Source: Candidatus Woesearchaeota archaeon
Lineage (GTDB): Archaea; Nanobdellota; Nanobdellia; Woesearchaeales; ARS49
Direction: 5' to 3'
DNA: 64,000 nt
Assembly: GCA_002687275.1 (NCBI GenBank)
Contig: NYZT01000011.1
Location: 8,040-72,039 of the forward strand
The notes under the pieces are model-generated. The model saw nothing but the letters and a program-made list of their open reading frames with translations, had not been told where the DNA came from and made no database searches. Every line of letters starts with the position of its first letter. Positions within the stretch are counted from its first letter, which is position 1. A program made the position numbers and the translations under genes. Positions 7,109 to 63,625 of the stretch are shown one piece after another.

Positions 7109-9444
7109 ATCTCGAACAACCCACGCTACTGCTGACAATCATCCCCTTACTCGTGGTGTTCTTCTTCTTGTTACGAAAACAGTTCGTCCAGGTGACCGAA
7201 GATGACGACACGAGCAAGCGAAAAAAGAAAGTACGCTGGATCATGCTCTTCACCAGAACGCTAATAGCTCTGGCACTGCTCACCGCCATCGCCAGCCCCT
7301 TTACAACCATAGAAAAAACAATCCAAGGAGATCCCGTCGTAAAAATACTCATCGACAACAGCTCTAGCATGGGCGCCATGGAAGCCTTTGACCTGGGCTT
7401 TGTTGAAAAAATGAAAACCAAGGTCGAGGTAGAGGTACACTCTGTCGCAAGCCCAGAGGTCTCAGACATTGGAGATGCGGTGCTAGCCAATCTGGGTCCA
7501 TTTGAGAGCATACTCCTCGTGAGCGATGGCAACGTCAACCAGGGGGCAGATCTCGGTGACGTCGCACTTTTTGCCCAGCAAATAAACTCCACCGTCCACG
7601 CGGTCAAGCTCAACACGCTAGTGGAGGACGTGGCGGTTTCTATAGACGGTCCAGACAAGACAAGCGCAGACGTGGACACTGAGTTCAGAGTCCACACCAC
7701 AGGTCCAGCACTAACCAAGGTAACCGTTGACGGCAGTGTTGTGTTCGAAGGCCAGCTTGACGGAAGCAAAGCCATAACTCGCCAGTTCAAAGAAGGCTAT
7801 CACAGAGTTGTGGCTAGCATACAAAAAAACGACCACTACCTAGACAACAACGTCTTCTACAAAACCATCAAGGCCGTGACCCCGCCAAAGATACTGTTCG
7901 TGACAGAAAAAGGGGAAAGCAGCATGCTCACGCTCCTGCGTCAGGCATACGAGGTAGAGGTCAACAGCCTGGTGCCCTTTGACCTCGACCCCTACTACGC
8001 CGTCATACTCAACGACGTCCCTGCAGGAAGCACAGACAAGTACGTTCCAACACTCACGGACTACCTCACCGAAGGCAATGGCGTCGTGGTGGTGGGTGGC
8101 AAAAAAAGCTATGACAACGGCGGCTACCGAAACAGTCTATTCGAAAAACTCCTCCCCGTCCACATCGGCAGCCCAAAGCGCAAAGAAGGCGATAACAACA
8201 TTGTTTTGCTCATCGACATATCTGGCAGCACAGGGTCGGGCTTTGGCGGCAACAAAGCCGTAGACGTAGAAAAGGCCCTGGCCATCAACGTCATCGAAAA
8301 CGAGGTCAGCTCTGACACCAAAGTAGGAGTTGTGGCCTTCAACACCCAAGCCTTCACCATATCCGACATCGACTACCTAGGCAACAGACAGGCCACGCTG
8401 GAGGACCGCATAGCAAGACTGAAGGATGGTGGGGGCACGCTCATCGGCGTGGGCATGATCAAGAGCCTCCAAATGCTCGAAACCGTCCAGGGCAGCAAAA
8501 ACATCATACTCATCAGTGATGGAAGAACCCAAGGAGAAAACGTCGCTCTAGAAAGCATCAAGCTCGCCGCGAACAGCGGCGTACGCGTCTACACGGTTGG
8601 AGTTGGAGGAATGACGCGAGAACACGTCATGGTGCAATACGCAGACATGACTGGAGGAATCTACTTCAGAGCAGATGACAGCAACCGACTAAAACTACTC
8701 TTTGGCAAGGCAGAGCCAGACTCTAGCAGCCAAAAACAAGTCATCGTGCTAAACCAAGACCACGACCTCACCCGAGGCATGGATAATCTTACCGCGAAAA
8801 TCACCGGCTACAACCAGATCGCACCAAAAACAACAGGACAACTACTCATCAGCACCAGTGATGGATTACCCGTGCTTGTTGTTGGCAGGGTGGGCCTGGG
8901 CAGGGTGGCAGCTGTGGGCACGGATGACGGCAGCGCGTGGGGTGGTGAGTTACTAGGAACGGCAAACAACATCTTCCACACCCGCACCATCGACTGGGCC
9001 ATTGGCGAGCCAGACAGGAAAGACAAGGAACTCGTCATGATCGCAGACACCCGAGTCAGGAGCAGCACGCCCATAATCGTAAGAAGCAGCAAACAACCAA
9101 AAATGGACGGCAAAAGCTTCGTACGCGCAGACAGAAACACGTACACCAGCACGATAACCCCAGATAAGATAGGTTTCCAAGAGATTCTGGGTGCGACGTT
9201 TGCCGTCAACTACCCCTCAGAGTACGACAGGATAGGCCAAGGAGAGGCGCTGGCCTTCATCACCAAGAGCACGGATGGACAAGTATTCGCCCAAGACGAC
9301 GTTGAGGGCATAGTAGAGGCTGCAAAAGCACGCGCAAAACGCACGCTAGCCACAAGAGACTACGTTCGATGGCCCTTCATCTTAGCAGCCATAATAGTGT
9401 TCTTGCTAGAAATCTTTATAAGGCGCTACTTGCGTGTAGAGTAA
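7105..9444 (+). CDS. BatA-like membrane protein with two vWA domains
   Basis: N-terminal TM (LLLTIIPLLVVFFFLLRKQ) and two MIDAS-like starts (ILIDNSSSMG and VLLIDISGSTG). A C-terminal TM follows. ATGA start/stop overlap with the preceding vWA gene. Confidence 0.6.
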   Translation: MNLEQPTLLLTIIPLLVVFFFLLRKQFVQVTEDDDTSKRKKKVRWIMLFTRTLIALALLTAIASPFTTIEKTIQGDPVVKILIDNSSSMGAMEAFDLGFVEKMKTKVEVEVHSVASPEVSDIGDAVLANLGPFESILLVSDGNVNQGADLGDVALFAQQINSTVHAVKLNTLVEDVAVSIDGPDKTSADVDTEFRVHTTGPALTKVTVDGSVVFEGQLDGSKAITRQFKEGYHRVVASIQKNDHYLDNNVFYKTIKAVTPPKILFVTEKGESSMLTLLRQAYEVEVNSLVPFDLDPYYAVILNDVPAGSTDKYVPTLTDYLTEGNGVVVVGGKKSYDNGGYRNSLFEKLLPVHIGSPKRKEGDNNIVLLIDISGSTGSGFGGNKAVDVEKALAINVIENEVSSDTKVGVVAFNTQAFTISDIDYLGNRQATLEDRIARLKDGGGTLIGVGMIKSLQMLETVQGSKNIILISDGRTQGENVALESIKLAANSGVRVYTVGVGGMTREHVMVQYADMTGGIYFRADDSNRLKLLFGKAEPDSSSQKQVIVLNQDHDLTRGMDNLTAKITGYNQIAPKTTGQLLISTSDGLPVLVVGRVGLGRVAAVGTDDGSAWGGELLGTANNIFHTRTIDWAIGEPDRKDKELVMIADTRVRSSTPIIVRSSKQPKMDGKSFVRADRNTYTSTITPDKIGFQEILGATFAVNYPSEYDRIGQGEALAFITKSTDGQVFAQDDVEGIVEAAKARAKRTLATRDYVRWPFILAAIIVFLLEIFIRRYLRVE

Positions 9445-9445
9445 C

Positions 9446-9991
9446 ATGGCCTTTGTGGACAAAAACGCCAACCTGTTACTGTTATTCCTCATAGTGATTA
9501 GTGCGACAGGCCTGGTGGCAGCCACCGTCTACTTCCAGAAGAATTTTGAGACCATCAACGAAGACTACGATAGCAAGGTAGCCCAGCTCAACAAGGTGAG
9601 CGATGAGCTCGAAAACCAGCGATCCGCTCTAGAGGCCATACGCTCAGAGCTGCTATTGAAAGAAAACCGTGAGGAAGAATTCGTAGAAAAGTTCACCGGC
9701 ATCAAAGAAGAAAAGAAAGGGCTAGAAGAGGAGCGGACCAATCTCCAAACCCAGAACGAAATACTCGAGAGCGCCAAGATAAGTGCGGTGGCAGCACAGC
9801 AAAAAGCCGAATCCGACCTTGGCGACGCCCTGGTCGCGCTGAACCGTGCAGACCAAGAGGCCGAATTCCAAAGAAGCGAGGCAGAAAAGTGGCGCAAAGA
9901 GACAGATAGAAGGCAAAACAGCCTCAACACGTTCGCCTCAAGGCTAAGCAGTTGTAAGAACACTTGCGGCAGCGGCTGTGACGGTATCTAG
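9446..9991 (+). CDS. coiled-coil protein with N-terminal TM helix and C-terminal Cys cluster
   Basis: N-terminal hydrophobic helix, long heptad-like region (ELENQRSALEAIRSELLLKENREEEF...) and a C-terminal CKNTCGSGCDG. Immediately follows the vWA pair with a 1-nt gap. Confidence 0.4.
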   Translation: MAFVDKNANLLLLFLIVISATGLVAATVYFQKNFETINEDYDSKVAQLNKVSDELENQRSALEAIRSELLLKENREEEFVEKFTGIKEEKKGLEEERTNLQTQNEILESAKISAVAAQQKAESDLGDALVALNRADQEAEFQRSEAEKWRKETDRRQNSLNTFASRLSSCKNTCGSGCDGI

Positions 9992-12374: not shown

Positions 12375-12921
12375 CCACGTAGAGCAGCACGATCATCAAC
12401 AGCATGTCTACGAAAAATATTTCTGGCAGCAACCGAATAAGGTAGGAGTCGGGTGGGAAGGTGTAGTTGCCCTGAGGGAAGAACCACTCATGGAACCATA
12501 TGAATGAGCGGCTGAAAAACACCATGATCAATGCTAGCGGGGCGAGCAGCCATATCCCTTGTCTCGAGGCAACAAGCAATGCCGCTCGCTTGTTAGGCAA
12601 CAACAGCATGCACCCTACCGTGAGCCAGAGCAGCAAGGCAAATGCCGCTGTCACAGAATGCATGACGTCCTTGACATCTGCCATGTGGCTCCTCTCATCA
12701 TCGGTAAGCTCCAAATCAAGCTTTTCTCGCCATAAGAAGTACGCAATCATACTGTTGGCAGCCTTGTCAGGCTCTCCCACGCCAAAACTGTCGTACGTGC
12801 CTGCATGCCAAAAGCCCAGGCTGTACGCTAGTGGGTTGTACATGACAAGATTAGCGCTTAACAGCAGTAGTGTTATAGGGAATAGGGCCAGTAAAACATG
12901 GAGCACGATGGTGTTCCGCAT
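12316..12921 (-). CDS. integral membrane protein
   Basis: Multiple predicted TM helices (LHVLLALFPITLLLL, LLWLTVGCMLLL, WLLAPLALIMVFF, MLLMIVLLYVVSCWLL). Confidence 0.45.
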   Translation of the reverse strand: MRNTIVLHVLLALFPITLLLLSANLVMYNPLAYSLGFWHAGTYDSFGVGEPDKAANSMIAYFLWREKLDLELTDDERSHMADVKDVMHSVTAAFALLLWLTVGCMLLLPNKRAALLVASRQGIWLLAPLALIMVFFSRSFIWFHEWFFPQGNYTFPPDSYLIRLLPEIFFVDMLLMIVLLYVVSCWLLQLWAQGRFRGVQV

Positions 12922-13671: not shown

Positions 13672-13891
13672 GCTCCTGGCCCGGAGTTTTTGTATTTAAG
13701 CGTTGCGTTCTGTCGTCCATTGCTTAGCATGGAATCTCATGCTTGATTTTGCCTGGACTTGGTCACAATGATGGCTATCCCAGTCAGGAACTTGTTTTGG
13801 TTTTGCGATGTGTGCTGCACGCAATATGCCTGATCTTCCAAGAGCACTTAGTAGAATCCACTTCCTTCCGTCGCGTTCAACAAATGGAAGA

Positions 13892-14137
13892 TCAACGGAC
13901 TTCATGGACTTTCCCTTCCTTGTGCAAATGTTCTAGGGCTTCGTTAATGTCTGGGAAGGGGAGTTTTGTTTTGAGATGTAGGTCGATAACATCAAACTTT
14001 TTTTTACCTTCTCGCTTAAGACTTTGGATACACTGTGTCACCTGCTTCCGTGCAGACTTGTTGGTGTTGTTCTGTTTACGTTGGATGGTGGCAACCTCTT
14101 CTTCCAAGCGCTCCACTCTTGTTACTATTGACTCCAT
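13892..14137 (-). CDS. small putative winged-helix DNA-binding protein
   Basis: 81 aa with an N-terminal coiled segment and a C-terminal FDVIDLHLKT...INEALEHLHKEGKVHEV helix-turn-wing-like segment. Lies next to the TCCGGAA palindrome. Confidence 0.3.
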   Translation of the reverse strand: MESIVTRVERLEEEVATIQRKQNNTNKSARKQVTQCIQSLKREGKKKFDVIDLHLKTKLPFPDINEALEHLHKEGKVHEVR

Positions 14138-14178
14138 AATAGTCTTGTTCCCATTTTGCTTTTTAAGCGTTGCGGAAT

Positions 14179-14200
14179 AATTTCCGGAAGATTTCCGGTT
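14179..14200. promoter_or_regulatory. TCCGGAAGATTTCCGG palindromic motif (copy 1)
   Basis: aatttccggaagatttccggtt; the inverted repeat TCCGGAA-N2-TTCCGGA is identical to the 16-mer at 38309-38324. Confidence 0.45.
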
Positions 14201-14702
14201 AGAGACGCATTTGCTTTGCTAGCACTATCTTTTTCTTGCCTACCATTTCTGCCTCTCTGACTTTGGTGCAGGGCAGTGCAAGTTTATGCACTTCTACCGC
14301 AAAGCCGAGCTGTTGGAGTTTTGGAATGCACTTTTTTTGGCTTTTTTGTAGTTGTTCGTGCCCGAGCTTGCACTCTACAAACTTGAAGCGTCCGTTTCTA
14401 TAACAAAGAAAGTCTGGCATGCCGTGGTGCACGATGGCTAGGTATTTCAGGTGGCAGAGCGTGCCAACGCGGTGCTTTTCTAATAGCTTGCATAGCCTTT
14501 CGTACTTCTTCCTCACGTTTGGATAAAGATTAACGCGTAGGGTGATGTCGATGAGTGCGCTTCTCCACACCTCCCACCCTTGCTTTTCTAGTCGTTTTCG
14601 TAAGTACTTCTCTGACAGCCCTCTCCTTTGGGTGGGCATGAACAGCATGGGCACGTAGACGTGCTTTACTGGCTCGTACTCGAATAGTTGCGTCTGACTC
14701 AC
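14199..14702 (-). CDS. VRR-NUC / PD-(D/E)xK family nuclease
   Basis: GMPDFLCYRNGRFKFVECKLGHEQL gives a PD...(E)CK catalytic motif typical of VRR-NUC. Gene is bracketed by TTCCGGAA palindromes on both sides. Confidence 0.5.
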   Translation of the reverse strand: MSQTQLFEYEPVKHVYVPMLFMPTQRRGLSEKYLRKRLEKQGWEVWRSALIDITLRVNLYPNVRKKYERLCKLLEKHRVGTLCHLKYLAIVHHGMPDFLCYRNGRFKFVECKLGHEQLQKSQKKCIPKLQQLGFAVEVHKLALPCTKVREAEMVGKKKIVLAKQMRL

Positions 14703-14781
14703 CCATCAAAGAAGCGTTTCGTGCTTAAAACCCTCACGCGCCCGTGTCCAGTGTCTAGTGGCACCGACGGAGACGGAAGCT

Positions 14782-14810
14782 TTCCGTATATTCCGGAAGC
14801 CTTCCGGAAG
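14782..14810. promoter_or_regulatory. TTCCGGAAG palindromic motif, tandem (copy 2)
   Basis: ttccgtatattccggaagccttccggaag; two adjacent self-complementary TTCCGGAA units in the upstream region of the VRR-NUC gene. Confidence 0.45.
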
Positions 14811-14865
14811 TTTACTCACAAGCGAATTTCCTTCTATATAGAAAAGAATTCGGGCATAGCCACAG

Positions 14866-15678
14866 CTAGGTTTGTTCCCTTTCAAAAAACTCGTACATGT
14901 TGGCCGCCTCGGCGGGAATAGGGAGGTCATCCACCTCGATCAGGTACTCGGCAAGGTGGGGTAGGGTGCAGTGCCTTCTTGCCAACGCTTGTAGGGGTGG
15001 GTACCGCCATCCGTGCTCGTCAACGATGACGACAGAGATGTCGTGAGCGTAAGCAGCCCCCATCATGAAGCAAGCGTGTCTATCCCAATCCTTTCCTGCA
15101 GGGAAGTAGGCCACGATGAGATCAAACTGGGGCATGTGGCGAGACTCTTGGTAGGCGTCATCCGAGATCAACAGTGTTCTGTCCGGGCGCTCGTTCCTGA
15201 CACGCGCGTATACTTCATCCATGGCCCCATCACTCTCGCCGCAAATTAGAATGGTGTTGATGGGCAGGCGCTCGTCAGTGCCCGCAGGATACTTACTCTC
15301 GATGTAGACGTCCTTTTTTGGTAGTTTAGGTTGGGTCTTGAGATAGGAAATAGCTTCGTCTAAAGAACCAAAATGATCGTCTGCCAACTGCTCAAGAAGC
15401 GGGTCTGGGTTTTCCTCATCCACAACGATGAGGTGGTTGCCGTGCGCACTCGCAACCGCGATCTCTGCATAGCTCATCACACCACGACTCTTTCCTTTTG
15501 GGAAAATGGCTAGCGCAACAGGACACTTCTCTGCCTCCCTCAGATCATCGTGTGCGAGCTTGAGCACGCTGGATTGACGGTGCTCTCTAGGATCAGAAAA
15601 GGAATATTGAGGCAATGCTTCAATGATGCCATCTCGAAAGCCATGGAACGAGCCAATCAGGTATACCTTGTCCATCAC
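14866..15678 (-). CDS. tandem nucleoside 2-deoxyribosyltransferase-like (Rossmann/SLOG-type) domain protein
   Basis: Two internal repeats: KVYLIGSF...ALAIFPKGKSRGVMSYAEIAVASAHGNHLIVV and TILICGESDG...LIVAYFPAGKDWDRHACFMMGAAYAHDISVVIV. Both fit the NDT-like pattern (YLAG...D.GT.fE.GyA.a.gkpv); the second copy lacks the conserved Glu. Confidence 0.45.
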   Translation of the reverse strand: MMDKVYLIGSFHGFRDGIIEALPQYSFSDPREHRQSSVLKLAHDDLREAEKCPVALAIFPKGKSRGVMSYAEIAVASAHGNHLIVVDEENPDPLLEQLADDHFGSLDEAISYLKTQPKLPKKDVYIESKYPAGTDERLPINTILICGESDGAMDEVYARVRNERPDRTLLISDDAYQESRHMPQFDLIVAYFPAGKDWDRHACFMMGAAYAHDISVVIVDEHGWRYPPLQALARRHCTLPHLAEYLIEVDDLPIPAEAANMYEFFEREQT

Positions 15679-15710: not shown

Positions 15711-16241
15711 CTACCGTACCACGATGACGTCCATGCTGTCGGGGTTGTGTCCGAGGAGTCCTGTAGTTGTAGCGACATAGTTGTACGGGTTGGGACCGCT
15801 TGCCCCTGAAATGGTGGTCTTCATCATAAGATTATGGACGCCTTTGAAACCGCCATGGCCGTCATTGTCTCCAGGGGTTGGCAAGCTGATGAATTGTTCA
15901 CCTGGTGCCAGCCTGCCAAACTTTGTGGTTTCGTAAGACTCTTCAGGATGGCCCTCAAAAAGATTTCTTGGTTTGAGATATGCTGGCATAACAACGATCG
16001 CGTCCCATTGATCAGGACGCAGAGGTTCGCTTCTCACTTCTTGTATAACCCGATCGCCATGCTCTTCGTTAACACCCAAATAGAAACGCCGCAGTGTTGC
16101 GTCATTAGTCGCAGGATCCGCCAACCACATAAGATCCTTTCCACCAAGATCGTCCATGGTTGCCTGGTGTCTGGAATCCACGACAATTGCCTTTGGGCCT
16201 CGTGCTTTCGTTAGTATGTGTCCTGGCAGGAAAATTCTCAT
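15711..16241 (-). CDS. hypothetical protein
   Basis: 176-aa ORF in the same orientation as its neighbours; Gly/Pro-rich C-terminal half; no family recognised. Confidence 0.4.
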   Translation of the reverse strand: MRIFLPGHILTKARGPKAIVVDSRHQATMDDLGGKDLMWLADPATNDATLRRFYLGVNEEHGDRVIQEVRSEPLRPDQWDAIVVMPAYLKPRNLFEGHPEESYETTKFGRLAPGEQFISLPTPGDNDGHGGFKGVHNLMMKTTISGASGPNPYNYVATTTGLLGHNPDSMDVIVVR

Positions 16242-23500: not shown

Positions 23501-24277
23501 CTACTGTGTGCTTCGCTTCCAGAATTCCTCAAAATACGCTTTGAACGAGTCAGCAATATGCTTGTTCACGATCTCCACCGCAATCGCCTCTGGATCTTGG
23601 AGAATGATGACGACCGTGTCTGCATACATCAGGAACATGGCAGGCGTTTGGATGTCAGAATCCATAACCTTGGTGACGCCGTCCTTGTAGCTGTTACGAT
23701 TCTTCAACGTTTTTGCATCCACCCCCTTGTTGAACAACGCGCGGAAGGTGATGCCTTCCCTAACCCTACGAATGTGGTCTTTTTTCCAGTACGCATGCTG
23801 TTCTTCTGGCTGGAAGATGGGCACGCCAAGATACACCCACTCATCACCTTTACCGAGCTTGTCGTACAAGTGCTCGTGCGCCGTTCTTATGCCTTTGAAG
23901 CCGGTGTACACAGTGGCCTGGGTCTTGGCAGCGCTGGCCTGCTTTAACAGTAGTTGTGGAATGGCTGCCTCCACCTTTTTTCTATGATCTGCAAGCGTGT
24001 TTGCTCGCTGGTCCATGTATTCTAACAACTTCGTGGGCGTTGCAGCCTGGTAGTACTTGGTTTTTTGTTTGGTGATGAAGGATACAAGACCTTTTTCCAT
24101 GAGTCTTTCAAGAATTTGGTAGATGATGGATCTGGCCACGCCAGACTTGTCCACGATGGGCCCTGTGGTCGAGGCTCCCAGCTCTAAGAGTGCAAGGTAG
24201 ACTTTTGACTCTCCATCCGTAAGATCGGCATGTTGGAGCAACGCTGTTTCCATACTATCAACAGAAGAGGATGGCAT
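23501..24277 (-). CDS. TrmB-family transcriptional regulator (paralog 2)
   Basis: N-terminal LTDGESKVYLALLELGASTTGPIVDKSGVARSIIYQILERLMEKGLV is a TrmB-type wHTH. C-terminal domain is paralogous to ORFs at 279-971 and 48113-48913. Confidence 0.65.
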   Translation of the reverse strand: MPSSSVDSMETALLQHADLTDGESKVYLALLELGASTTGPIVDKSGVARSIIYQILERLMEKGLVSFITKQKTKYYQAATPTKLLEYMDQRANTLADHRKKVEAAIPQLLLKQASAAKTQATVYTGFKGIRTAHEHLYDKLGKGDEWVYLGVPIFQPEEQHAYWKKDHIRRVREGITFRALFNKGVDAKTLKNRNSYKDGVTKVMDSDIQTPAMFLMYADTVVIILQDPEAIAVEIVNKHIADSFKAYFEEFWKRSTQ

Positions 24278-24347
24278 AAAAACCTTGCTATTGCTCTACC
24301 ACCGCTGGTGGGCGTATCATTAAATGGGCTGTTTGCCTCAATAAGAT

Positions 24348-35904: not shown

Positions 35905-36789
35905 CTACATCTTTTCCAGGCGAGAAATCCTTTCTTCGATAGGTGGGTGGGTGGCAAACAGCGCGATGGTTTTGCCCTTGGTCTTTCTGAAGGGTGTGGA
36001 GATGAATAAGTGCGCGGTTGCCCTGTTTGCCCTGTCTACTAGGGGATCAGGATCTCCTTGGATTTTTTTGAGAGCGCTGCTGAGACCAGGAGGGTATCTT
36101 GTCAGGGCCGCTCCTGTGGCGTCGGCCAGGTATTCTCGCTGTCTGCTCACGGCTAGCCGCATTAGGTGTCCGATAATGGGTGCGAGGATGGCGAGTGCTA
36201 TGGCTAGGATGAGTAGTGCAGGATGGCCCTTTCTGTTATCTCCGCCCCCAAACCAAAGACTTCGTAGGAAGAAGTCTCCTAGCAGCGTCACCACGCCGAC
36301 GAGGACGGTGGTGAGCATCATTAATCGAATGTCAAAGTTCTTGATGTGCGCCATCTCGTGCGCTATGACTCCTTCTAGCTCTTGCCTGTTGAGCTTGTCC
36401 AACAATCCTGTTGTCACGGTGACTGAGGAATGTTTGGGGTCTTTGCCTGTGGCAAACGCGTTTAATGCTGTATCATCGATCACGTACGCTTTTGGTGTTG
36501 GTATGCCTGCTGCAACGGCTAATCCTTCTATGGTGTGGTGGAGGTGGGGAAATTCTTTCTTGGTCACGGGTCTTGCGCCGGTCATGTTGAGTATCATGCT
36601 TCCTCCAGTGTTGAAGACTATGAAGAAGTATATAGCTCCCACTAAGGTGGACATGATGACGCCAAACCACATGTTGCCGTAGTACAGGCCCAAAACGCTG
36701 CCGAGCAAGCCCACGATGATGACGAAAAGTATGACTAGGATGGCGGATTTGATGTTGTTAGACCGAATTTGCTGGAATAGCGTTGCCAT
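35905..36789 (-). CDS. htpX: M48 zinc metalloprotease HtpX
   Basis: HEMAHIKNFD (HExxH), N-terminal TM helices and a downstream Glu region; classic LemA-HtpX gene pair. Confidence 0.8.
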   Translation of the reverse strand: MATLFQQIRSNNIKSAILVILFVIIVGLLGSVLGLYYGNMWFGVIMSTLVGAIYFFIVFNTGGSMILNMTGARPVTKKEFPHLHHTIEGLAVAAGIPTPKAYVIDDTALNAFATGKDPKHSSVTVTTGLLDKLNRQELEGVIAHEMAHIKNFDIRLMMLTTVLVGVVTLLGDFFLRSLWFGGGDNRKGHPALLILAIALAILAPIIGHLMRLAVSRQREYLADATGAALTRYPPGLSSALKKIQGDPDPLVDRANRATAHLFISTPFRKTKGKTIALFATHPPIEERISRLEKM

Positions 36790-37341
36790 CTAAAACTCTA
36801 CTTTTACGTTCTTTTTTTCTGACTCTTCAACCTCAAACATCTCTTCTTGTTTGAAGCCGAGACTGTTAGCGATAATGTTGTTTGGAAAGACTTGTATTTT
36901 GTTGTTAAAACTCATCACGACGTCGTTGTAGTGTTGTCTTGAGTAGCTGATCTTGTTCTCTGTGCCTGTTAATTCTTCTTGGAGTTGCAAGAAATTTTCG
37001 TTGGCCTTGAGCTGTGGGTAGTTTTCTACTTGTACCATTAAACTACCGAGTGCGTTGCTGAGTTTTGTGCTTGCCTGTGCCTTCGCTCCCATGGTGGCAG
37101 CCTTCATGACCGCTGTTCTTTCTTTGGTGATCTCTGTCAGCAAGTTCTTTTCGTGTTTTGCGTATCCCTTGACTGTGTTGATGAGGTTGGGGATGAGGTC
37201 GTGCCTCCGTTTCAACTGCACGTCGATCTGTGCCAGGCTGTTCTTGATCTCGTTCTTCAGCCTGATGAGGCTGTTGTACAAGAAAATAACTGCTAGGATG
37301 ATGATTCCAAGAATGATCGCAATCCACCAACCAATACTCAT
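36790..37341 (-). CDS. lemA: LemA family membrane protein
   Basis: N-terminal TM (GWWIAIILGIIILAVIFLYN) followed by the LemA helical domain (LAQIDVQLKRRHDLIPNLINTVKGY...ENYPQLKANENFLQLQEEL). Confidence 0.75.
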   Translation of the reverse strand: MSIGWWIAIILGIIILAVIFLYNSLIRLKNEIKNSLAQIDVQLKRRHDLIPNLINTVKGYAKHEKNLLTEITKERTAVMKAATMGAKAQASTKLSNALGSLMVQVENYPQLKANENFLQLQEELTGTENKISYSRQHYNDVVMSFNNKIQVFPNNIIANSLGFKQEEMFEVEESEKKNVKVEF

Positions 37342-37919
37342 GCACTAGCAGATTGGTCCACTCTTTTTAAAGCTTCCTGAAAGGCGATGCTGTGTCCTAT
37401 GCCTTGAAAGCTGTAAGGATTCCAGCAGAAGAGCCTTGCTGCCCAGGCCATGGCACCAACACTCTCTCTAGGTTCATGGGTGTATCCATAATTGTTCTGC
37501 CATACTGCTAGTTTGACTATTTCGTACGCAAGATCACAGGCAAAGTCCCTGTCTGCGGTGGGATGTACAAGATTGCCAAAGCTGCTCAACACGTAGTCAC
37601 TCACTATGTTTTGTGGCGCATGATCGTCTATGCCTCCTTGATGTTGGTCAAGACCAACACGGTCAAAGCAGAGATAGACGTCATTTTCCTCGCGAACGTT
37701 TGAACGTTCGATCACTTCTAGAACTTCTGGGCCTTCACTTGGGTCTTTATCGTAGAACTCTCTGTGCACGATGCCAATCCGTATCGCCTTGTAGGCCGCT
37801 CCCACCTCGTTGCGTCCTCCGCCCCAGATAATCTGGTGTTTGGCATCTACTACCTTGAACTCCTTGAGGCCGTGGGTGGGTTCTACTGGCTTTCGGGGTC
37901 TACCTATCAGGGTCATCAC
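37338..37919 (-). CDS. hypothetical protein (possible macro/PARG-like fold, weak)
   Basis: IIWGGGRNEVGAAYKAIRIG is loosely reminiscent of macro-domain Gly-rich loops; otherwise unassigned. Confidence 0.3.
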   Translation of the reverse strand: MMTLIGRPRKPVEPTHGLKEFKVVDAKHQIIWGGGRNEVGAAYKAIRIGIVHREFYDKDPSEGPEVLEVIERSNVREENDVYLCFDRVGLDQHQGGIDDHAPQNIVSDYVLSSFGNLVHPTADRDFACDLAYEIVKLAVWQNNYGYTHEPRESVGAMAWAARLFCWNPYSFQGIGHSIAFQEALKRVDQSASA

Positions 37920-37947
37920 TAAGAGAGTAAAATAAGCCTTATAAAGG

Positions 37948-38262
37948 TCATTGTTCCAGCCTGTCCAAGCGCTTATCGTGATGAGACACTGTTTTCTTTA
38001 GTTGGGTGATCTCATACTCTATCTTGGTGAGCTGAGCAGTATGGGTCTGCAAGGTTTGCTCAATCCTCTGCAGTGTTTTGCCTGCCTGGAAACCGAGACC
38101 TATGATGGTTATGCCGCCTGCAAAATGGGGAAGATACTCAAGCCAGACCGGCGTGTGGATGAACCCTAGCAAGCCTGCGATAGCATACCCTAGCCATACG
38201 ACTAACCCTGCAATGGTTACCACGCGTGCTAGCGTCATCTGCCAGTCGGCAATTTGGGCCAT
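37948..38262 (-). CDS. small membrane protein with C-terminal coiled coil
   Basis: Two TM helices then LQRIEQTLQTHTAQLTKIEYEITQLKKTVSHHDKRLDRLEQ. Confidence 0.35.
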   Translation of the reverse strand: MAQIADWQMTLARVVTIAGLVVWLGYAIAGLLGFIHTPVWLEYLPHFAGGITIIGLGFQAGKTLQRIEQTLQTHTAQLTKIEYEITQLKKTVSHHDKRLDRLEQ

Positions 38263-38306
38263 TCTTCCTGCAACGTATCATTCCTTTTTATGCCTTTCGA
38301 CGAGAG

Positions 38307-38325
38307 ATCCGGAAGATTTCCGGAT
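38307..38325. promoter_or_regulatory. TCCGGAAGATTTCCGG palindromic motif (copy 3)
   Basis: atccggaagatttccggat; the 16-mer is identical to 14183-14198. Lies between two minus-strand membrane-protein genes. Confidence 0.45.
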
Positions 38326-43396: not shown

Positions 43397-43442
43397 TGGT
43401 GGTGCAAAAAACGGGTGGCATAAAAACCTTAATGTCCGCTTT

Positions 43443-58581: not shown

Positions 58582-58995
58582 ATGCGATGGCTATTACTGT
58601 TTTTGTTGGTCGGCTGCGGAACCTTTCCCCATATCGATTTTGAGACGAAAGATTCCACCCTAGAGGTCGAGGTAGAGTTAGCGATAGAGTCTATGGACCA
58701 AACACGAGGGCTGATGTTTCGGAACTCGCTAGCACCTGACAAGGGCATGCTGTTCATGTTCGATAGCGAAGAGCACAGAGCGTTTTGGATGAAAAACGTA
58801 CGATTCCCTATTGACATGATCTTCTTAGACAAGGACTGGGTGGTGGTGGACATCCAGCAGGCAGAGCCCTGCCTTGCCGACCCTTGCGAGCATCACGTGA
58901 GCAAGCAACCCACACAATACGTCCTAGAGGTCAACAAGGGCTTTGCCAACAAGCACGGCATCCAAGAAGGGCACTACGGTCGTTTCCACCCATAG
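58582..58995 (+). CDS. DUF192 family protein
   Basis: Signal/lipobox-like N-terminus (LLVGCGT) then LEVEVELAIESMDQTRGLMFRNSLAPDKGMLFMFD...FWMKNVRFPIDMIFLDKD, the DUF192 core. Confidence 0.55.
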   Translation: MRWLLLFLLVGCGTFPHIDFETKDSTLEVEVELAIESMDQTRGLMFRNSLAPDKGMLFMFDSEEHRAFWMKNVRFPIDMIFLDKDWVVVDIQQAEPCLADPCEHHVSKQPTQYVLEVNKGFANKHGIQEGHYGRFHP

Positions 58996-61180: not shown

Positions 61181-62949
61181 TACGGTTCTGGCTCATCTCT
61201 CCATATCTCCTCAGCTGTCTTAATCCCGTAGATGAGAGGGATGCCTGCTGTCGCCCGCTTACTAGTGGGTCGATACTCATATTCCCATGTTTGCCAGCGC
61301 TCTGCCCCGTCGTACACCGAGTCCATTTCGATGAACTTGTGCCATCCTACCCTGCGCTCGTTAAATCGTCTTCTTGTACGCGCGATCCAGCTGTTGGGTG
61401 CTGTCTCTGTTTTGAAGTGTTTGGCTGCTTGGTAGCAAGCGTAGCGGGGTCGGGTCTCGGCGATCTTAGCTAGGCATTGCATGACGTCTGCATGCTCTCG
61501 CAGGTCTACTTGGGGCGGTGAGAGTCCGCGATCATCATTTGTTCCAAACCACTCGTTCAGGAGAACTGCTGCCATGTCTCGCTCCTCAAGCGGGGCGGGT
61601 GTTTCGTCTTTGTGTTCTTCAATGTATCGCCATACTTCCTCAACGTGTTTTTGTGTACCTCTGAGATGTTCGTTTAGTCCGTCCATGAACGGGTTTAGTC
61701 TTTCCTCAGGCAAGGACACCAACCATGACATCGCTGCTAAGGGAATGTATTGCTGGACGAAGTGCCTGTTGGCCCAGCACAATCCTAGTCTTATGTTTTG
61801 CATTCGGTCACGAAGATCCGTGCACTGTTGGGCGTAATCGTTATCTAGATCATGTAGGTTAGCGTATCGTGCGGCTTCCTGCCATCGATAGTCGTCCATG
61901 AGTAGCTTGTGGTAGAATTTTTGTTGGTACAATCGGTTGGCTGCATCTTCGCTGTGGAGAAGATGACCATACATGTCATCTCCAGGAACGAGCACTAACT
62001 CTTCTAGATAGTATTTTTCTACCGCTCGCCGCCTTATCTTTTCTATGGTTGCCTTAGGCCGGTCGACCTTTCTGTAGAGTAATGCTGCGCTGTACCAGCT
62101 GGTTGCCTTGTCAAGTAAGTCAAAGGCCGTCTCAAAATCTTGCATCTCTGTGCACACTCTTCCTTCTGCTCCATGTTGGTTGCAGTAGGAGAGCATGACG
62201 CGGGCTGCTTCGTAAATGTCAAGATACCGCTCACTCCCTCTCGCTTTTGCGGTTCTTGCCCATGTGACTATTTCCTTTGCTGCTCCAAGGGGTGTCTTGC
62301 CAAAGGCAAATTTGCATTCTGCCACCTCCGTCCACCCCTCCAATTTTAACTGTTTTATTCCGCTCTCTGTGCGTTGTGCGAATTGCGGCCATTCCACATC
62401 CTGAAACATGATTACAGAATCTACTATCCAGTCGAAGCGCTCTGCTTTGTAGCCGACGCGCGCTGCCCTGAAGTGATCTCCGCGAGCTTGGTGGTGTTTT
62501 CGCCACTTGTCGTATATTGGCATGGGATCTTTTTCTGTTTTGAAATGCACGCTCTTGGCAAGGTAGTGGCACATCTCTGGTGAGGCTCGTTCTGCTAGGA
62601 CCTCGACAGATTCGTCATTTGCAAGCCATTCTAAGAACAGGGCGCCCATGCTCTCGTCTCCGTTGATGTTGTGGTGTACTAGTATGGCGGTGTCATAGTC
62701 TTCTAGGCCCTCTGCAACCATGGCTATCCGAAACTTTTGTGCAGGACCTAGGCGATCGAAGAAGGGATGCTCTTGTGGTCCTGATCCAACAAACTCGTGT
62801 TGGAGACTTTTTAGCTCACGATATCTGACGTAGTTTATACGCGCAGGGTTCCTGTCCTTGGTGGTTATTATATTAGATGAATCAAACTCGCCCATCAGGC
62901 TCTCGATGCTTGGAATGTCCGACATATCCCGCCAGGGCAGAGATGGCAT
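61177..62949 (-). CDS. large hypothetical protein (590 aa, Trp/Tyr-rich, no recognisable domain)
   Basis: Long ORF with no motif I can assign; followed on the same strand by a B3/4-domain gene. Confidence 0.45.
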   Translation of the reverse strand: MPSLPWRDMSDIPSIESLMGEFDSSNIITTKDRNPARINYVRYRELKSLQHEFVGSGPQEHPFFDRLGPAQKFRIAMVAEGLEDYDTAILVHHNINGDESMGALFLEWLANDESVEVLAERASPEMCHYLAKSVHFKTEKDPMPIYDKWRKHHQARGDHFRAARVGYKAERFDWIVDSVIMFQDVEWPQFAQRTESGIKQLKLEGWTEVAECKFAFGKTPLGAAKEIVTWARTAKARGSERYLDIYEAARVMLSYCNQHGAEGRVCTEMQDFETAFDLLDKATSWYSAALLYRKVDRPKATIEKIRRRAVEKYYLEELVLVPGDDMYGHLLHSEDAANRLYQQKFYHKLLMDDYRWQEAARYANLHDLDNDYAQQCTDLRDRMQNIRLGLCWANRHFVQQYIPLAAMSWLVSLPEERLNPFMDGLNEHLRGTQKHVEEVWRYIEEHKDETPAPLEERDMAAVLLNEWFGTNDDRGLSPPQVDLREHADVMQCLAKIAETRPRYACYQAAKHFKTETAPNSWIARTRRRFNERRVGWHKFIEMDSVYDGAERWQTWEYEYRPTSKRATAGIPLIYGIKTAEEIWRDEPEPY

Positions 62950-62956
62950 AAAAACG

Positions 62957-63625
62957 TTAGCTCAGAACTTCTACTTTGGACTCGCCGCCGCAATATTTTG
63001 TAACTAGCTCTGCAAGTTCGTCAGAGATGGCTTGGATGTCATCTTTGGAAAAGGGAGGTAAGCCTTCTACGACGAGAACGGCATTCTTTGTGGCTTCGGT
63101 CATTTTTGTCTTGTCGCACTCTCGCCAGTTCCACCTGCGGCAAAGAACTTCCTTGTCATCTTTGTAGATGACTTCTCCTGGCTTGGGATTGCTTTGTTCT
63201 TTGCTGTTTAGTTGCTCGAACGACTCATCCCCTTTTGCTAGCGTTAGCGTGATCTCGCCGTCTACCTTGTCTGCGTCATCCCCGCCAGCAGGGATGGTGT
63301 GCTTGAGTGAGATGTAGTTGTAGATGTCCACCACTGGGTTTATGCTTCGTAGCGTCATGCCTTCTAGAATCATGCGGTAGAGGTTTTCTACTGAGCACCG
63401 GTATTTTGAGGGCTTTGCGCCAAACGAGCGGTAGGCCTCTTGCCAGGATTTTATTTTTGGGTTGTCAACTAGCTCGTGAATGTTTAGACTCTTGACTTTT
63501 GTTTGTTCTTGTTGTACCAGCTTCGCAACTTCGTCGTGCGGTTTGGTGTTGTCAATGCCTGTTATACTTACAACACCTATGTGCAGGCCTGGAAACTTTT
63601 CTTTTACTTCAGGATTCAGGTTCAT
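62957..63625 (-). CDS. B3/B4 tRNA-binding-domain protein (stand-alone)
   Basis: Length about 220 aa. Regions FPGLHIGVVSITGIDN and NPVVDIYNYISLKHTIPAGGDD resemble the PheT B3/B4 domain found as solo proteins. Confidence 0.45.
   Translation of the reverse strand: MNLNPEVKEKFPGLHIGVVSITGIDNTKPHDEVAKLVQQEQTKVKSLNIHELVDNPKIKSWQEAYRSFGAKPSKYRCSVENLYRMILEGMTLRSINPVVDIYNYISLKHTIPAGGDDADKVDGEITLTLAKGDESFEQLNSKEQSNPKPGEVIYKDDKEVLCRRWNWRECDKTKMTEATKNAVLVVEGLPPFSKDDIQAISDELAELVTKYCGGESKVEVLS

Follow-up and report, generated by a model that had tools for sequence, protein, structure and literature searches.

Several archaeal transcription regulators with a winged-helix domain act on dyad operators, including TrmB and TrmBL1/Tgr (on the Thermococcales glycolytic motif, TGM, TATCAC-N5-GTGATA), Lrp-type proteins (on 15-bp boxes), and Ptr2, TFB-RF1 and EarA, which act upstream of the transcription factor B recognition element (BRE). 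For TrmBL1/Tgr, Ptr2 and TFB-RF1, a site located upstream of BRE/TATA is associated with activation, and a site located over or after the TATA box or the transcription start with repression (PMC4158304). Here we describe a recurrent palindrome, CCGGAA-N3-TTCCGG, in a 64-kb stretch of the genome of a Candidatus Woesearchaeota archaeon (contig NYZT01000011.1, positions 8,040 to 72,039; hereinafter the window), and propose, with roughly even confidence, that it is the operator of a small winged-helix protein encoded in a two-gene cassette, with extra sites in front of a gene for a VRR-NUC nuclease and of an operon encoding LemA and an HtpX-like peptidase. To our knowledge, experiments have so far revealed nothing on how genes are regulated in Woesearchaeota or other DPANN archaea, since these marine lineages are all uncultured.

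The unit common to all copies of the palindrome, the inverted repeat CGGAA-N3-TTCCG with its constant 3-nt spacer, is present in four exact copies in the window (core coordinates 14185-97 for site A, 14774-86 for site B, 14794-806 for site C and 38310-22 for site D) and takes the extended form CCGGAA-N3-TTCCGG or longer at sites A, C and D. Read on the minus strand like the genes around them, the full sites are as follows. Site A (14184-14198; CCGGAA-ATC-TTCCGG on the sense strand) directly follows the TAA stop codon of the VRR-NUC gene, with its first base 61 nt 5' of the ATG of a gene encoding an 81-amino acid (aa) protein. Site B (14773-14787; ACGGAA-N3-TTCCGT) and site C (14791-14809; TTCCGGAA-GCC-TTCCGGAA) form a tandem pair whose centres are 78 and 98 nt 5' of the GTG start of VRR-NUC. 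Site D (38307-38325; ATCCGGAA-GAT-TTCCGGAT) begins 1 nt after the stop codon of a DUF2391 gene, 61 nt from the ATG of a gene encoding a 104-aa protein; both C and D are perfect 8+3+8 palindromes. The 16-mer TCCGGAAGATTTCCGG, on which the original prediction was based, occurs exactly twice in the window, at 14183-14198 and 38308-38323, and TTCCGGAAGCCTTCCGGAAG at 14791-14810 is preceded by TTCCGTATA at 14782-14790. That prediction was right about the exact recurrence and about the position of site A, which is adjacent to the stop codon of VRR-NUC and 5' of the 81-aa gene; it placed the second 16-mer one nucleotide too far (38309-38324), took the spacer to be 2 nt where the dyad is better described with 3 nt, and assigned the tandem copy to the 5' region of the VRR-NUC gene, when in fact this copy precedes the GTG start (14702) by 71-108 nt.

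The expectation that such recurrence is unlikely by chance was also borne out. Allowing for one mismatch at most, CGGAA-N3-TTCCG is found six times in the window, compared to a mean of 1.4 in dinucleotide-preserving shuffles, with none of the 100 shuffles reaching six. The words CGGAA and TTCCG are rare (38 and 34 copies, respectively), and from their counts one would expect about 0.02 exact dyads; the tetramer CCGG is depleted (93 copies versus approximately 241 expected from base composition). All four exact copies are intergenic in a window that is about 95% covered by open reading frames (ORFs). The motif is therefore real and non-random, and chance is excluded. Two near-matches, at 58617 and 59532, are both located inside ORFs and are probably due to chance; another dyad with four copies, TTGCC-N3-GGCAA, was treated as chance because all its copies lie within ORFs and its words are common. 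No further copies of the palindrome were found in 12 kb of additional sequence from the same genome (four copies in approximately 76 kb overall), and no comparable recurring palindromes were seen at other Woesearchaeota loci. As a separate observation, six of the 93 CCGG copies fall within palindromes, and the depletion of this tetramer may reflect restriction-site avoidance.

The position of the palindromes with respect to promoter elements points to a role in transcription. Many genes in the window carry TTTATA or TTTAAA approximately 27-33 nt 5' of the start codon, a pattern seen in archaeal promoters with a short leader or none. Sites A and D are placed identically within this pattern: centre to centre, 28.5 bp separate the palindrome from C(T/A)TAAAAAG, 25.5 bp lie between the middle of the TATA box and the ATG, and the palindrome starts 61 nt from the ATG without gaps. 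The TATA-like boxes concerned are CTTAAAAAG in the leaderless-type promoter of the 81-aa gene (14159-14167, minus strand) and CATAAAAAG in the promoter of the 104-aa gene (38284-38292, minus strand). The two palindromes start 0 and 1 nt after the upstream stop codon; this is the same fact as the 61-nt distance to the ATG, given that the spacers are 61 and 62 nt long. The centres of the half-sites are 9 bp apart and those of sites B and C 20 bp apart, that is, two helical turns, as read from the sequence, and both spacings fit a helix-turn-helix protein that binds as a dimer to one face of the DNA. Sites B and C are located 53.5 and 73.5 bp from the conserved proximal TATA box of the VRR-NUC gene (GGTTTTAAGC, 14723-14732). 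A TATA-like palindrome upstream of them (TTCTATATAGAA, 14832-14843) may be a second promoter, in which case sites B and C would lie just downstream of its start site. The genes 3' of site D form a putative operon (35905-38262, minus strand) that encodes the 104-aa protein, a 193-aa protein, LemA and an M48/HtpX-like peptidase; the intergenic gaps are 28, -4 and 0 nt. The 104-aa protein contains two transmembrane segments and a coiled coil, and the 193-aa protein has no assigned function.

The location directly after TAA stop codons on the transcribed strand, 0 and 1 nt away at sites A and D, together with the stem of 6-8 bp in predicted folds, could also be accounted for if the palindrome acted in RNA, as a 3' hairpin (terminator, stabilizer or processing site) of the VRR-NUC and DUF2391 transcripts. 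We consider this very improbable. The hairpin is not followed by a U-tract on the transcribed strand and its folding energy is ordinary (within the range of shuffled sequences, z = -0.5 to -1.7), both unlike an intrinsic terminator, and a terminator scan finds nothing at the palindromes. The copies keep their sequence and not just the pairing, with no compensatory changes seen; the stem of site B is short, and sites B and C are 57-93 nt past the nearest upstream stop codon. Furthermore, there is no general habit of hairpins after stop codons in the window, and no Rfam family is matched.

The gene that follows site A (13892-14137, minus strand) encodes the candidate binder of the palindrome, with an N-terminal coiled-coil helix and a winged-helix domain. 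At NCBI this protein is annotated as a hypothetical protein of 'Candidatus Woesearchaeota archaeon', and a word-indexed search, which retrieved only the protein itself, gave it the appearance of an ORFan; this status was overturned by a full HMMER search of 1.84 billion representatives, which identified a family of 27 clusters (E < 1e-3; 29-49% identity; 60-143 aa). The family alignment shows a heptad-like N-terminal helix and a C-terminal block, IDLHxxTxLPxxQINxIMxxLEKEGxV, and the family profile, when compared to PDB, is similar to the winged-helix domain of the RNA polymerase III subunit RPC6/RPC34 (E = 3.7e-5) and to GCN4-type coiled coils. A single-sequence AlphaFold2 model was too poor (predicted local distance difference test score, pLDDT, 57) and was replaced by a model built with the family alignment (pLDDT 87.8), which contains a long helix spanning residues 2-42 and helices at 50-57 and 61-74. 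A Foldseek search of PDB with this model yields weak matches, all of them to winged-helix DNA-binding domains, LrpC, Z-alpha, AraR/GntR and DeoR among them. Thus, the 81-aa protein is predicted to be a winged-helix fold joined to a coiled-coil helix.

The resemblance to the archaeal winged-helix regulators is considerable on the side of the DNA: the dyad is short and perfect, with half-sites about one helical turn apart, it is located directly upstream of BRE/TATA at a fixed spacing, and the predicted arrangement includes several target promoters, that of the regulator itself among them, and a tandem pair of sites at one promoter. The protein is different. It is much smaller than these regulators, lacks an effector domain and probably dimerizes via its N-terminal coiled coil, and its winged-helix domain is closest in sequence to the RPC34/RPC6 type and not to TrmB or Lrp. 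A search of the archaeal literature did not find the operator word CCGGAA-N3-TTCCGG. A similar dyad is the nitrogen operator of methanogens, GGAA-N6-TTCC, which is bound by NrpR. Our palindrome shares with it the inverted GGAA/TTCC arrangement, as in euryarchaeal promoters, and differs from it in the spacer (3 nt in all copies, not 6), in the longer half-site CCGGAA, and in putative targets that have no link to nitrogen.

The 81-aa gene does not come alone. It overlaps by 14 nt a gene for a 69-aa protein (13696-13905, minus strand), in which the residues W, LRA, KP, D-x-D-x-HHC, K-x-S-x-R and K-x-W are invariant. In the contigs of the five homologues that were read, each 81-aa-type gene is followed by an ORF of 66-75 aa in an overlapping frame, homologous to the one at 13696-13905 with 43-48% identity. 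Such a partner was found after every 81-aa homologue whose downstream DNA was readable, with the family sampled in six lineages; the pair is present in L377, L378, L379, L380 and L381-383, that is, in at least five metagenomic lineages other than that of the window. The surroundings differ: the pair is located after the VRR-NUC gene in the window, next to genes for small membrane proteins near EF-2/S10 in L377, after the gene for S27e in L378, and after that for an FtsX-type permease in L381. No match to the 69-aa protein was found in Pfam, PADLOC, PHROGs or PDB, and no relatives of either protein were found in viral contigs, phages or plasmids. Judging from gene order and distribution, the 81-aa and 69-aa genes behave as a patchily distributed two-gene cassette.

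The insertion of this cassette is apparent from comparison with the nearest relative, L130 (ETNP7_MAG_72), whose VRR-NUC protein is 87% identical to that of the window and whose locus contains a syntenic series of genes for a 270-aa protein, VRR-NUC, a 118-aa zinc-ribbon membrane protein and Lit. There are no palindromes in this locus, and in pairwise alignment its two differences from the window are exactly at the palindrome positions. The first is a block of 494 nt (13708-14201, minus strand), in place of which L130 has 6 nt. This block comprises, in order, TAA-CCGGAAATCTTCCGG-AAATTATTC, which supplies a new VRR-NUC stop codon and site A, then BRE/TATA, the 81-aa gene and the overlapping 69-aa ORF. 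The insertion shortened the C-terminus of VRR-NUC by means of the new, earlier stop codon. The block is associated with two copies of the 13-nt direct repeat CGCAACGCTTAAA, both on the minus strand: copy 1 (14162-14174) contains the BRE/TATA of the 81-aa gene, and copy 2 (13695-13707) encodes the ancestral VRR-NUC C-terminal codons RNA and stop and holds the TATA box of the 118-aa gene. L130 has a single copy of the 13-mer, which serves as the end of the VRR-NUC coding sequence (RNA-stop) and includes the TATA box of the next gene; in the window, the 69-aa ORF ends on the old VRR-NUC stop codon within copy 2, the RNA-stop being the duplicated ancestral C-terminus. A clean target-site duplication was rejected as the origin of the repeat, given that it overlaps the local BRE/TATA consensus and that the left junction also differs by a 27-nt palindrome segment.

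The second difference is upstream of the VRR-NUC gene, where the homology with L130 begins at CCACTAGACACTGG (14761); beyond this point the window has approximately 100 nt with sites B and C, in place of which L130 has about 600 nt that include, at 9437-9948, a 71-aa ORF and a 111-aa zinc-ribbon/MazE-AbrB-like ORF, the latter with a below-cutoff match to PF04014 (E = 1.6e-4). The flanks of the VRR-NUC gene appear to be hot spots for small cassettes of DNA-binding genes, and L130 also lacks the 176-aa gene found at 15711-16241 of the window. At the third locus, the relative L196 (84% identical DUF2391, with the Lhr-DUF2391 synteny kept) has a 39-nt spacer, no palindrome D and a different downstream gene. 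When the window (38263-38324) is compared to L196 (2837-2875), GAAGAATGG at the start codon after DUF2391 is common to both, with the downstream genes differing, namely the 104-aa membrane protein in the window and a methyltransferase-like protein in L196; a rearrangement junction may lie within the first codons.

The motif is thus lineage-specific at all three loci and the candidate regulator gene equally so at the VRR-NUC locus. Motif and regulator gene co-occur in one lineage, since L130 lacks site A together with the 81-aa and 69-aa genes, and L196 lacks site D. The original prediction took absence of the motif from orthologous intergenic regions with conserved flanking genes as a refutation. 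Such absence is indeed what we find, and we read it as pointing to a recent joint acquisition of the regulator and its sites and not to a lack of function.

The homologous cassettes allow an independent look at the palindrome. L377 comes from a different archaeon in the same TARA sample (G+C content 36%), with an 81-aa homologue that is 39% identical to the one in the window. It contains CCGGAAGATTTCTGG, the palindrome with one mismatch, 5' of this gene, followed by ATATTAAG and then ATG. The distance to the start is 61 nt, the alignment from palindrome to start with sites A and D is gapless, and the TATA box is at the same offset, a geometry shared by these three promoters and different from that of sites B and C. 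The arms are identical to those of site A in 11 of 12 positions, compared to 19 of 46 for the 46 nt between palindrome and ATG, and the palindrome is the sole match with one mismatch or fewer in 10.3 kb, where shuffles give an expectation of 0.01. At the level of sequence, this comparison may amount to a phylogenetic footprint on the palindrome.

Contigs identical to that of the window are present in TARA Oceans and other marine assemblies. A metagenome scan with WTCCGGAAGATTTCCGGW found at least 119 loci; among the matches listed, only L358 comes from the source population. Those with multiple copies (L340, L323, L347) are low-GC sequences of eukaryotic or giant-viral appearance, with plant glucanase-like ORFs and a histone-fusion ORF, and were dismissed as unrelated to the archaeon. 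They contain dense arrays of TTCCGGAAG with a period of about 11 nt (1750-1990 in L340, 2830-3010 in L323 and 440-620 in L347), the same word as in the palindrome. A viral origin was likewise rejected: the exact 16-mer yielded 56 single-copy matches in the viral scan, consistent with chance, and neither cassette protein has relatives among the viral contigs, phages and plasmids.

If the palindrome were the operator of a host factor encoded elsewhere, the cassette promoter would be just one member of a host regulon. A TrmB-family regulator gene (PF01978) is present in the window at 279-971 on the minus strand, with no palindrome copy nearby, and its product is an example of such a factor. This possibility would accommodate the presumed control by sites D and B/C of genes unrelated to the cassette, and the promoters of two more distant cassettes, L378 and L381, that lack the palindrome. 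We regard it as unlikely, because the palindrome travels with the cassette, at identical spacing, into a genome of very different composition, and because the two nearest relatives, in which the VRR-NUC locus has no cassette, do not have it in their orthologous promoters. Such a factor would need to be common to both hosts and yet be missing or unused in the near relatives.

The same comparisons bear on a link with DNA rearrangement, whereby the palindrome would form the ends or the target of small mobile cassettes, or be a small palindromic repeat that inserts between genes, with sites B/C and D marking insertion hot spots. The left junction of the 494-nt insertion is 0-3 nt from site A, which creates the new VRR-NUC stop codon there, the coding block is flanked by the 13-nt direct repeat, the nearest relatives differ in gene content at all three loci, L130 has another small DNA-binding gene exactly at the position of sites B and C, and assemblies break repeatedly at 14907/8. 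Against this stands the character of the copies themselves. They share only 15-19 nt (16 nt between A and D) with no conserved flanks, there is no palindrome at the right end of the insertion, no further copies are present in the 12 kb of extra sequence mentioned above, and the spacing to TATA and ATG is exactly kept in three promoters; the 13-mer, in turn, overlaps the common BRE/TATA consensus AACGCTTAWA. Known core sites of tyrosine and serine recombinases have a 6-8 nt spacer, which the 3-nt spacer does not fit, and integron attC sites are 55-140 nt long. The palindrome is thus unlike attC or another site-specific recombination site in its 15-19 nt length and 3-nt spacer, and no integrase or transposase domain was found in the annotated stretches at 4-20 kb and 28-48 kb; likewise, no relatives were found among viruses or plasmids. 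The resemblance to bacterial repetitive extragenic palindromic (REP) sequences and bacterial interspersed mosaic elements (BIMEs), which are GC-rich palindromes recurring between genes directly after stop codons, is limited in a similar way: unlike these or repeats similar to miniature inverted-repeat transposable elements (MITEs), the copies have only 15-19 nt in common, number four in approximately 76 kb, and are strictly spaced from promoter elements, and no gene similar to REP-associated tyrosine transposases (RAYTs) was seen. Altogether, we find a rearrangement role quite unlikely. As an observation on the locus, contigs from independent metagenome assemblies repeatedly begin at 14907/14908 and stop at 12807, which suggests strain-level structural variation flanking the VRR-NUC/cassette locus.

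The original prediction also considered the palindromes as ends of a mobile or defence cassette containing the nuclease gene, a notion that is not supported by the comparison of genomes. The VRR-NUC gene (14199-14702, minus strand; 167 aa, GTG start) was correctly identified, with an above-cutoff match to PF08774 (E = 2.5e-7) and invariant PD...ExK residues, and its proximal TATA box is conserved in L130. Nearly all of its 140 homologues, 45-87% identical, belong to Woesearchaeota/Nanoarchaeia. Among GTDB species representatives, which do not include the source species and whose best VRR-NUC match has 87% identity, a scan found the gene in 66 genomes. In the 892 kb around these loci the dyad occurs once, at chance level and not near VRR-NUC; the cassette is missing from the nearest relative and from 66 Woesearchaeota loci; the syntenic L130 gene has no palindromes around it; and VRR-NUC has no match in PADLOC. 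Because of this wide conservation, the chance-level dyad count and the lack of a PADLOC match, VRR-NUC is a conserved gene of the lineage rather than a mobile or defence insert, and the nuclease is most likely a bystander or a target of the regulator rather than cargo.

The acquired unit is instead the neighbouring two-gene cassette, whose layout and distribution are reminiscent of a type II toxin-antitoxin module, with no toxin family established. As in such modules, two small co-oriented genes overlap (by the 14 nt given above), the DNA-binding one comes first, and the two are inherited as a pair; a palindrome is located in their own promoter; the distribution is patchy, with insertion at unrelated places in the chromosome; and conservation is higher in the second protein than in the first (43-48% versus 33-40% identity). 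Unlike in type II toxin-antitoxin systems, the 69-aa protein matches no known toxin family in the four databases searched, the putative operator lies upstream of the TATA box and not over it, and there are extra putative operators in front of host genes.

Considering these observations together, CCGGAA-N3-TTCCGG is best interpreted as a transcriptional operator that is most likely bound by a dimer of the 81-aa protein, a coiled-coil helix joined to a winged helix. The lineage acquired the two-gene cassette, which encodes this protein along with the 69-aa 'HHC' one, immediately 3' of VRR-NUC. Site A would be the autoregulatory operator of the cassette itself, just upstream of the BRE/TATA of its leaderless-type promoter. 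Site D, with the same geometry, would put the four-gene operon (membrane coiled-coil protein, protein of unassigned function, LemA and HtpX-like peptidase) under the same factor, and the tandem sites B and C would do so for VRR-NUC, so that host genes would become linked to the cassette regulator. Here we infer both the 81-aa protein as the binder and sites B, C and D as functional. As far as their position goes, sites A and D have the look of activator sites, given that they lie upstream of BRE/TATA as do the activating sites of TrmBL1/Tgr, Ptr2 and TFB-RF1. The original proposal of an operator with the adjacent 81-aa winged-helix protein as its dedicated factor gains support from the predicted fold, from the joint insertion with site A, and from the palindrome at the same distance in L377.

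Several points weigh against this interpretation. Sites B and C do not share the spacing of A and D to the proximal VRR-NUC TATA box. The promoters of L378 and L381, with 33-35% identity between the encoded proteins and the 81-aa protein, contain other sequence at the palindrome position, GTCCAGGAC in one and TTCCGC-N4-TTCC in the other, so that the palindrome is kept in one of the three fully readable homologue promoters (L377) and the support from footprinting rests on one independent comparison. The Foldseek E-values for the 81-aa model are all above 0.2, the putative recognition helix is rather acidic as read from the sequence, and RPC34, the closest sequence relative of the winged-helix domain, is not a classical operator binder. 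Finally, the nearest relatives differ from the window at each of the three motif loci, as would also fit a recombination-linked element.

Apart from the palindrome, the 18-mer GGRTGGCATAAAAACSTT occurs three times in the window (24269-24286, 43413-43430 and 62941-62958); on the other strand it reads AAGGTTTTTATGCCAYCC, located at or near the starts of minus-strand ORFs, and may be a shared start region or a promoter element.

More broadly, and as a conjecture that we consider rather unlikely, the 81-aa/69-aa gene pairs could represent a new family of mobile, self-regulating modules of DPANN archaea, addiction- or defence-like in nature. Under this scenario, copies of the operator would have appeared in front of host genes after the insertion, putting VRR-NUC and the LemA/HtpX-like membrane-stress operon under the control of the incoming regulator. 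On present evidence, the kind of system is familiar, a transcription factor with a dyad operator in a toxin-antitoxin-like cassette, and the members are new. The recognition of the two-gene cassette as the acquired unit, with a second gene that the original prediction had missed, corrects the idea of the nuclease as a mobile or defence insert. It also uncovers a conserved family of small proteins, marked by D-x-D-x-HHC, that always accompany the regulator. The 81-aa protein and the 15-bp site, together with three candidate target promoters, make a concrete pair for in vitro work. For the biology of these archaea, the locus suggests that a recently acquired small cassette may bring along its own operator, copies of which then appear at the promoters of host genes.

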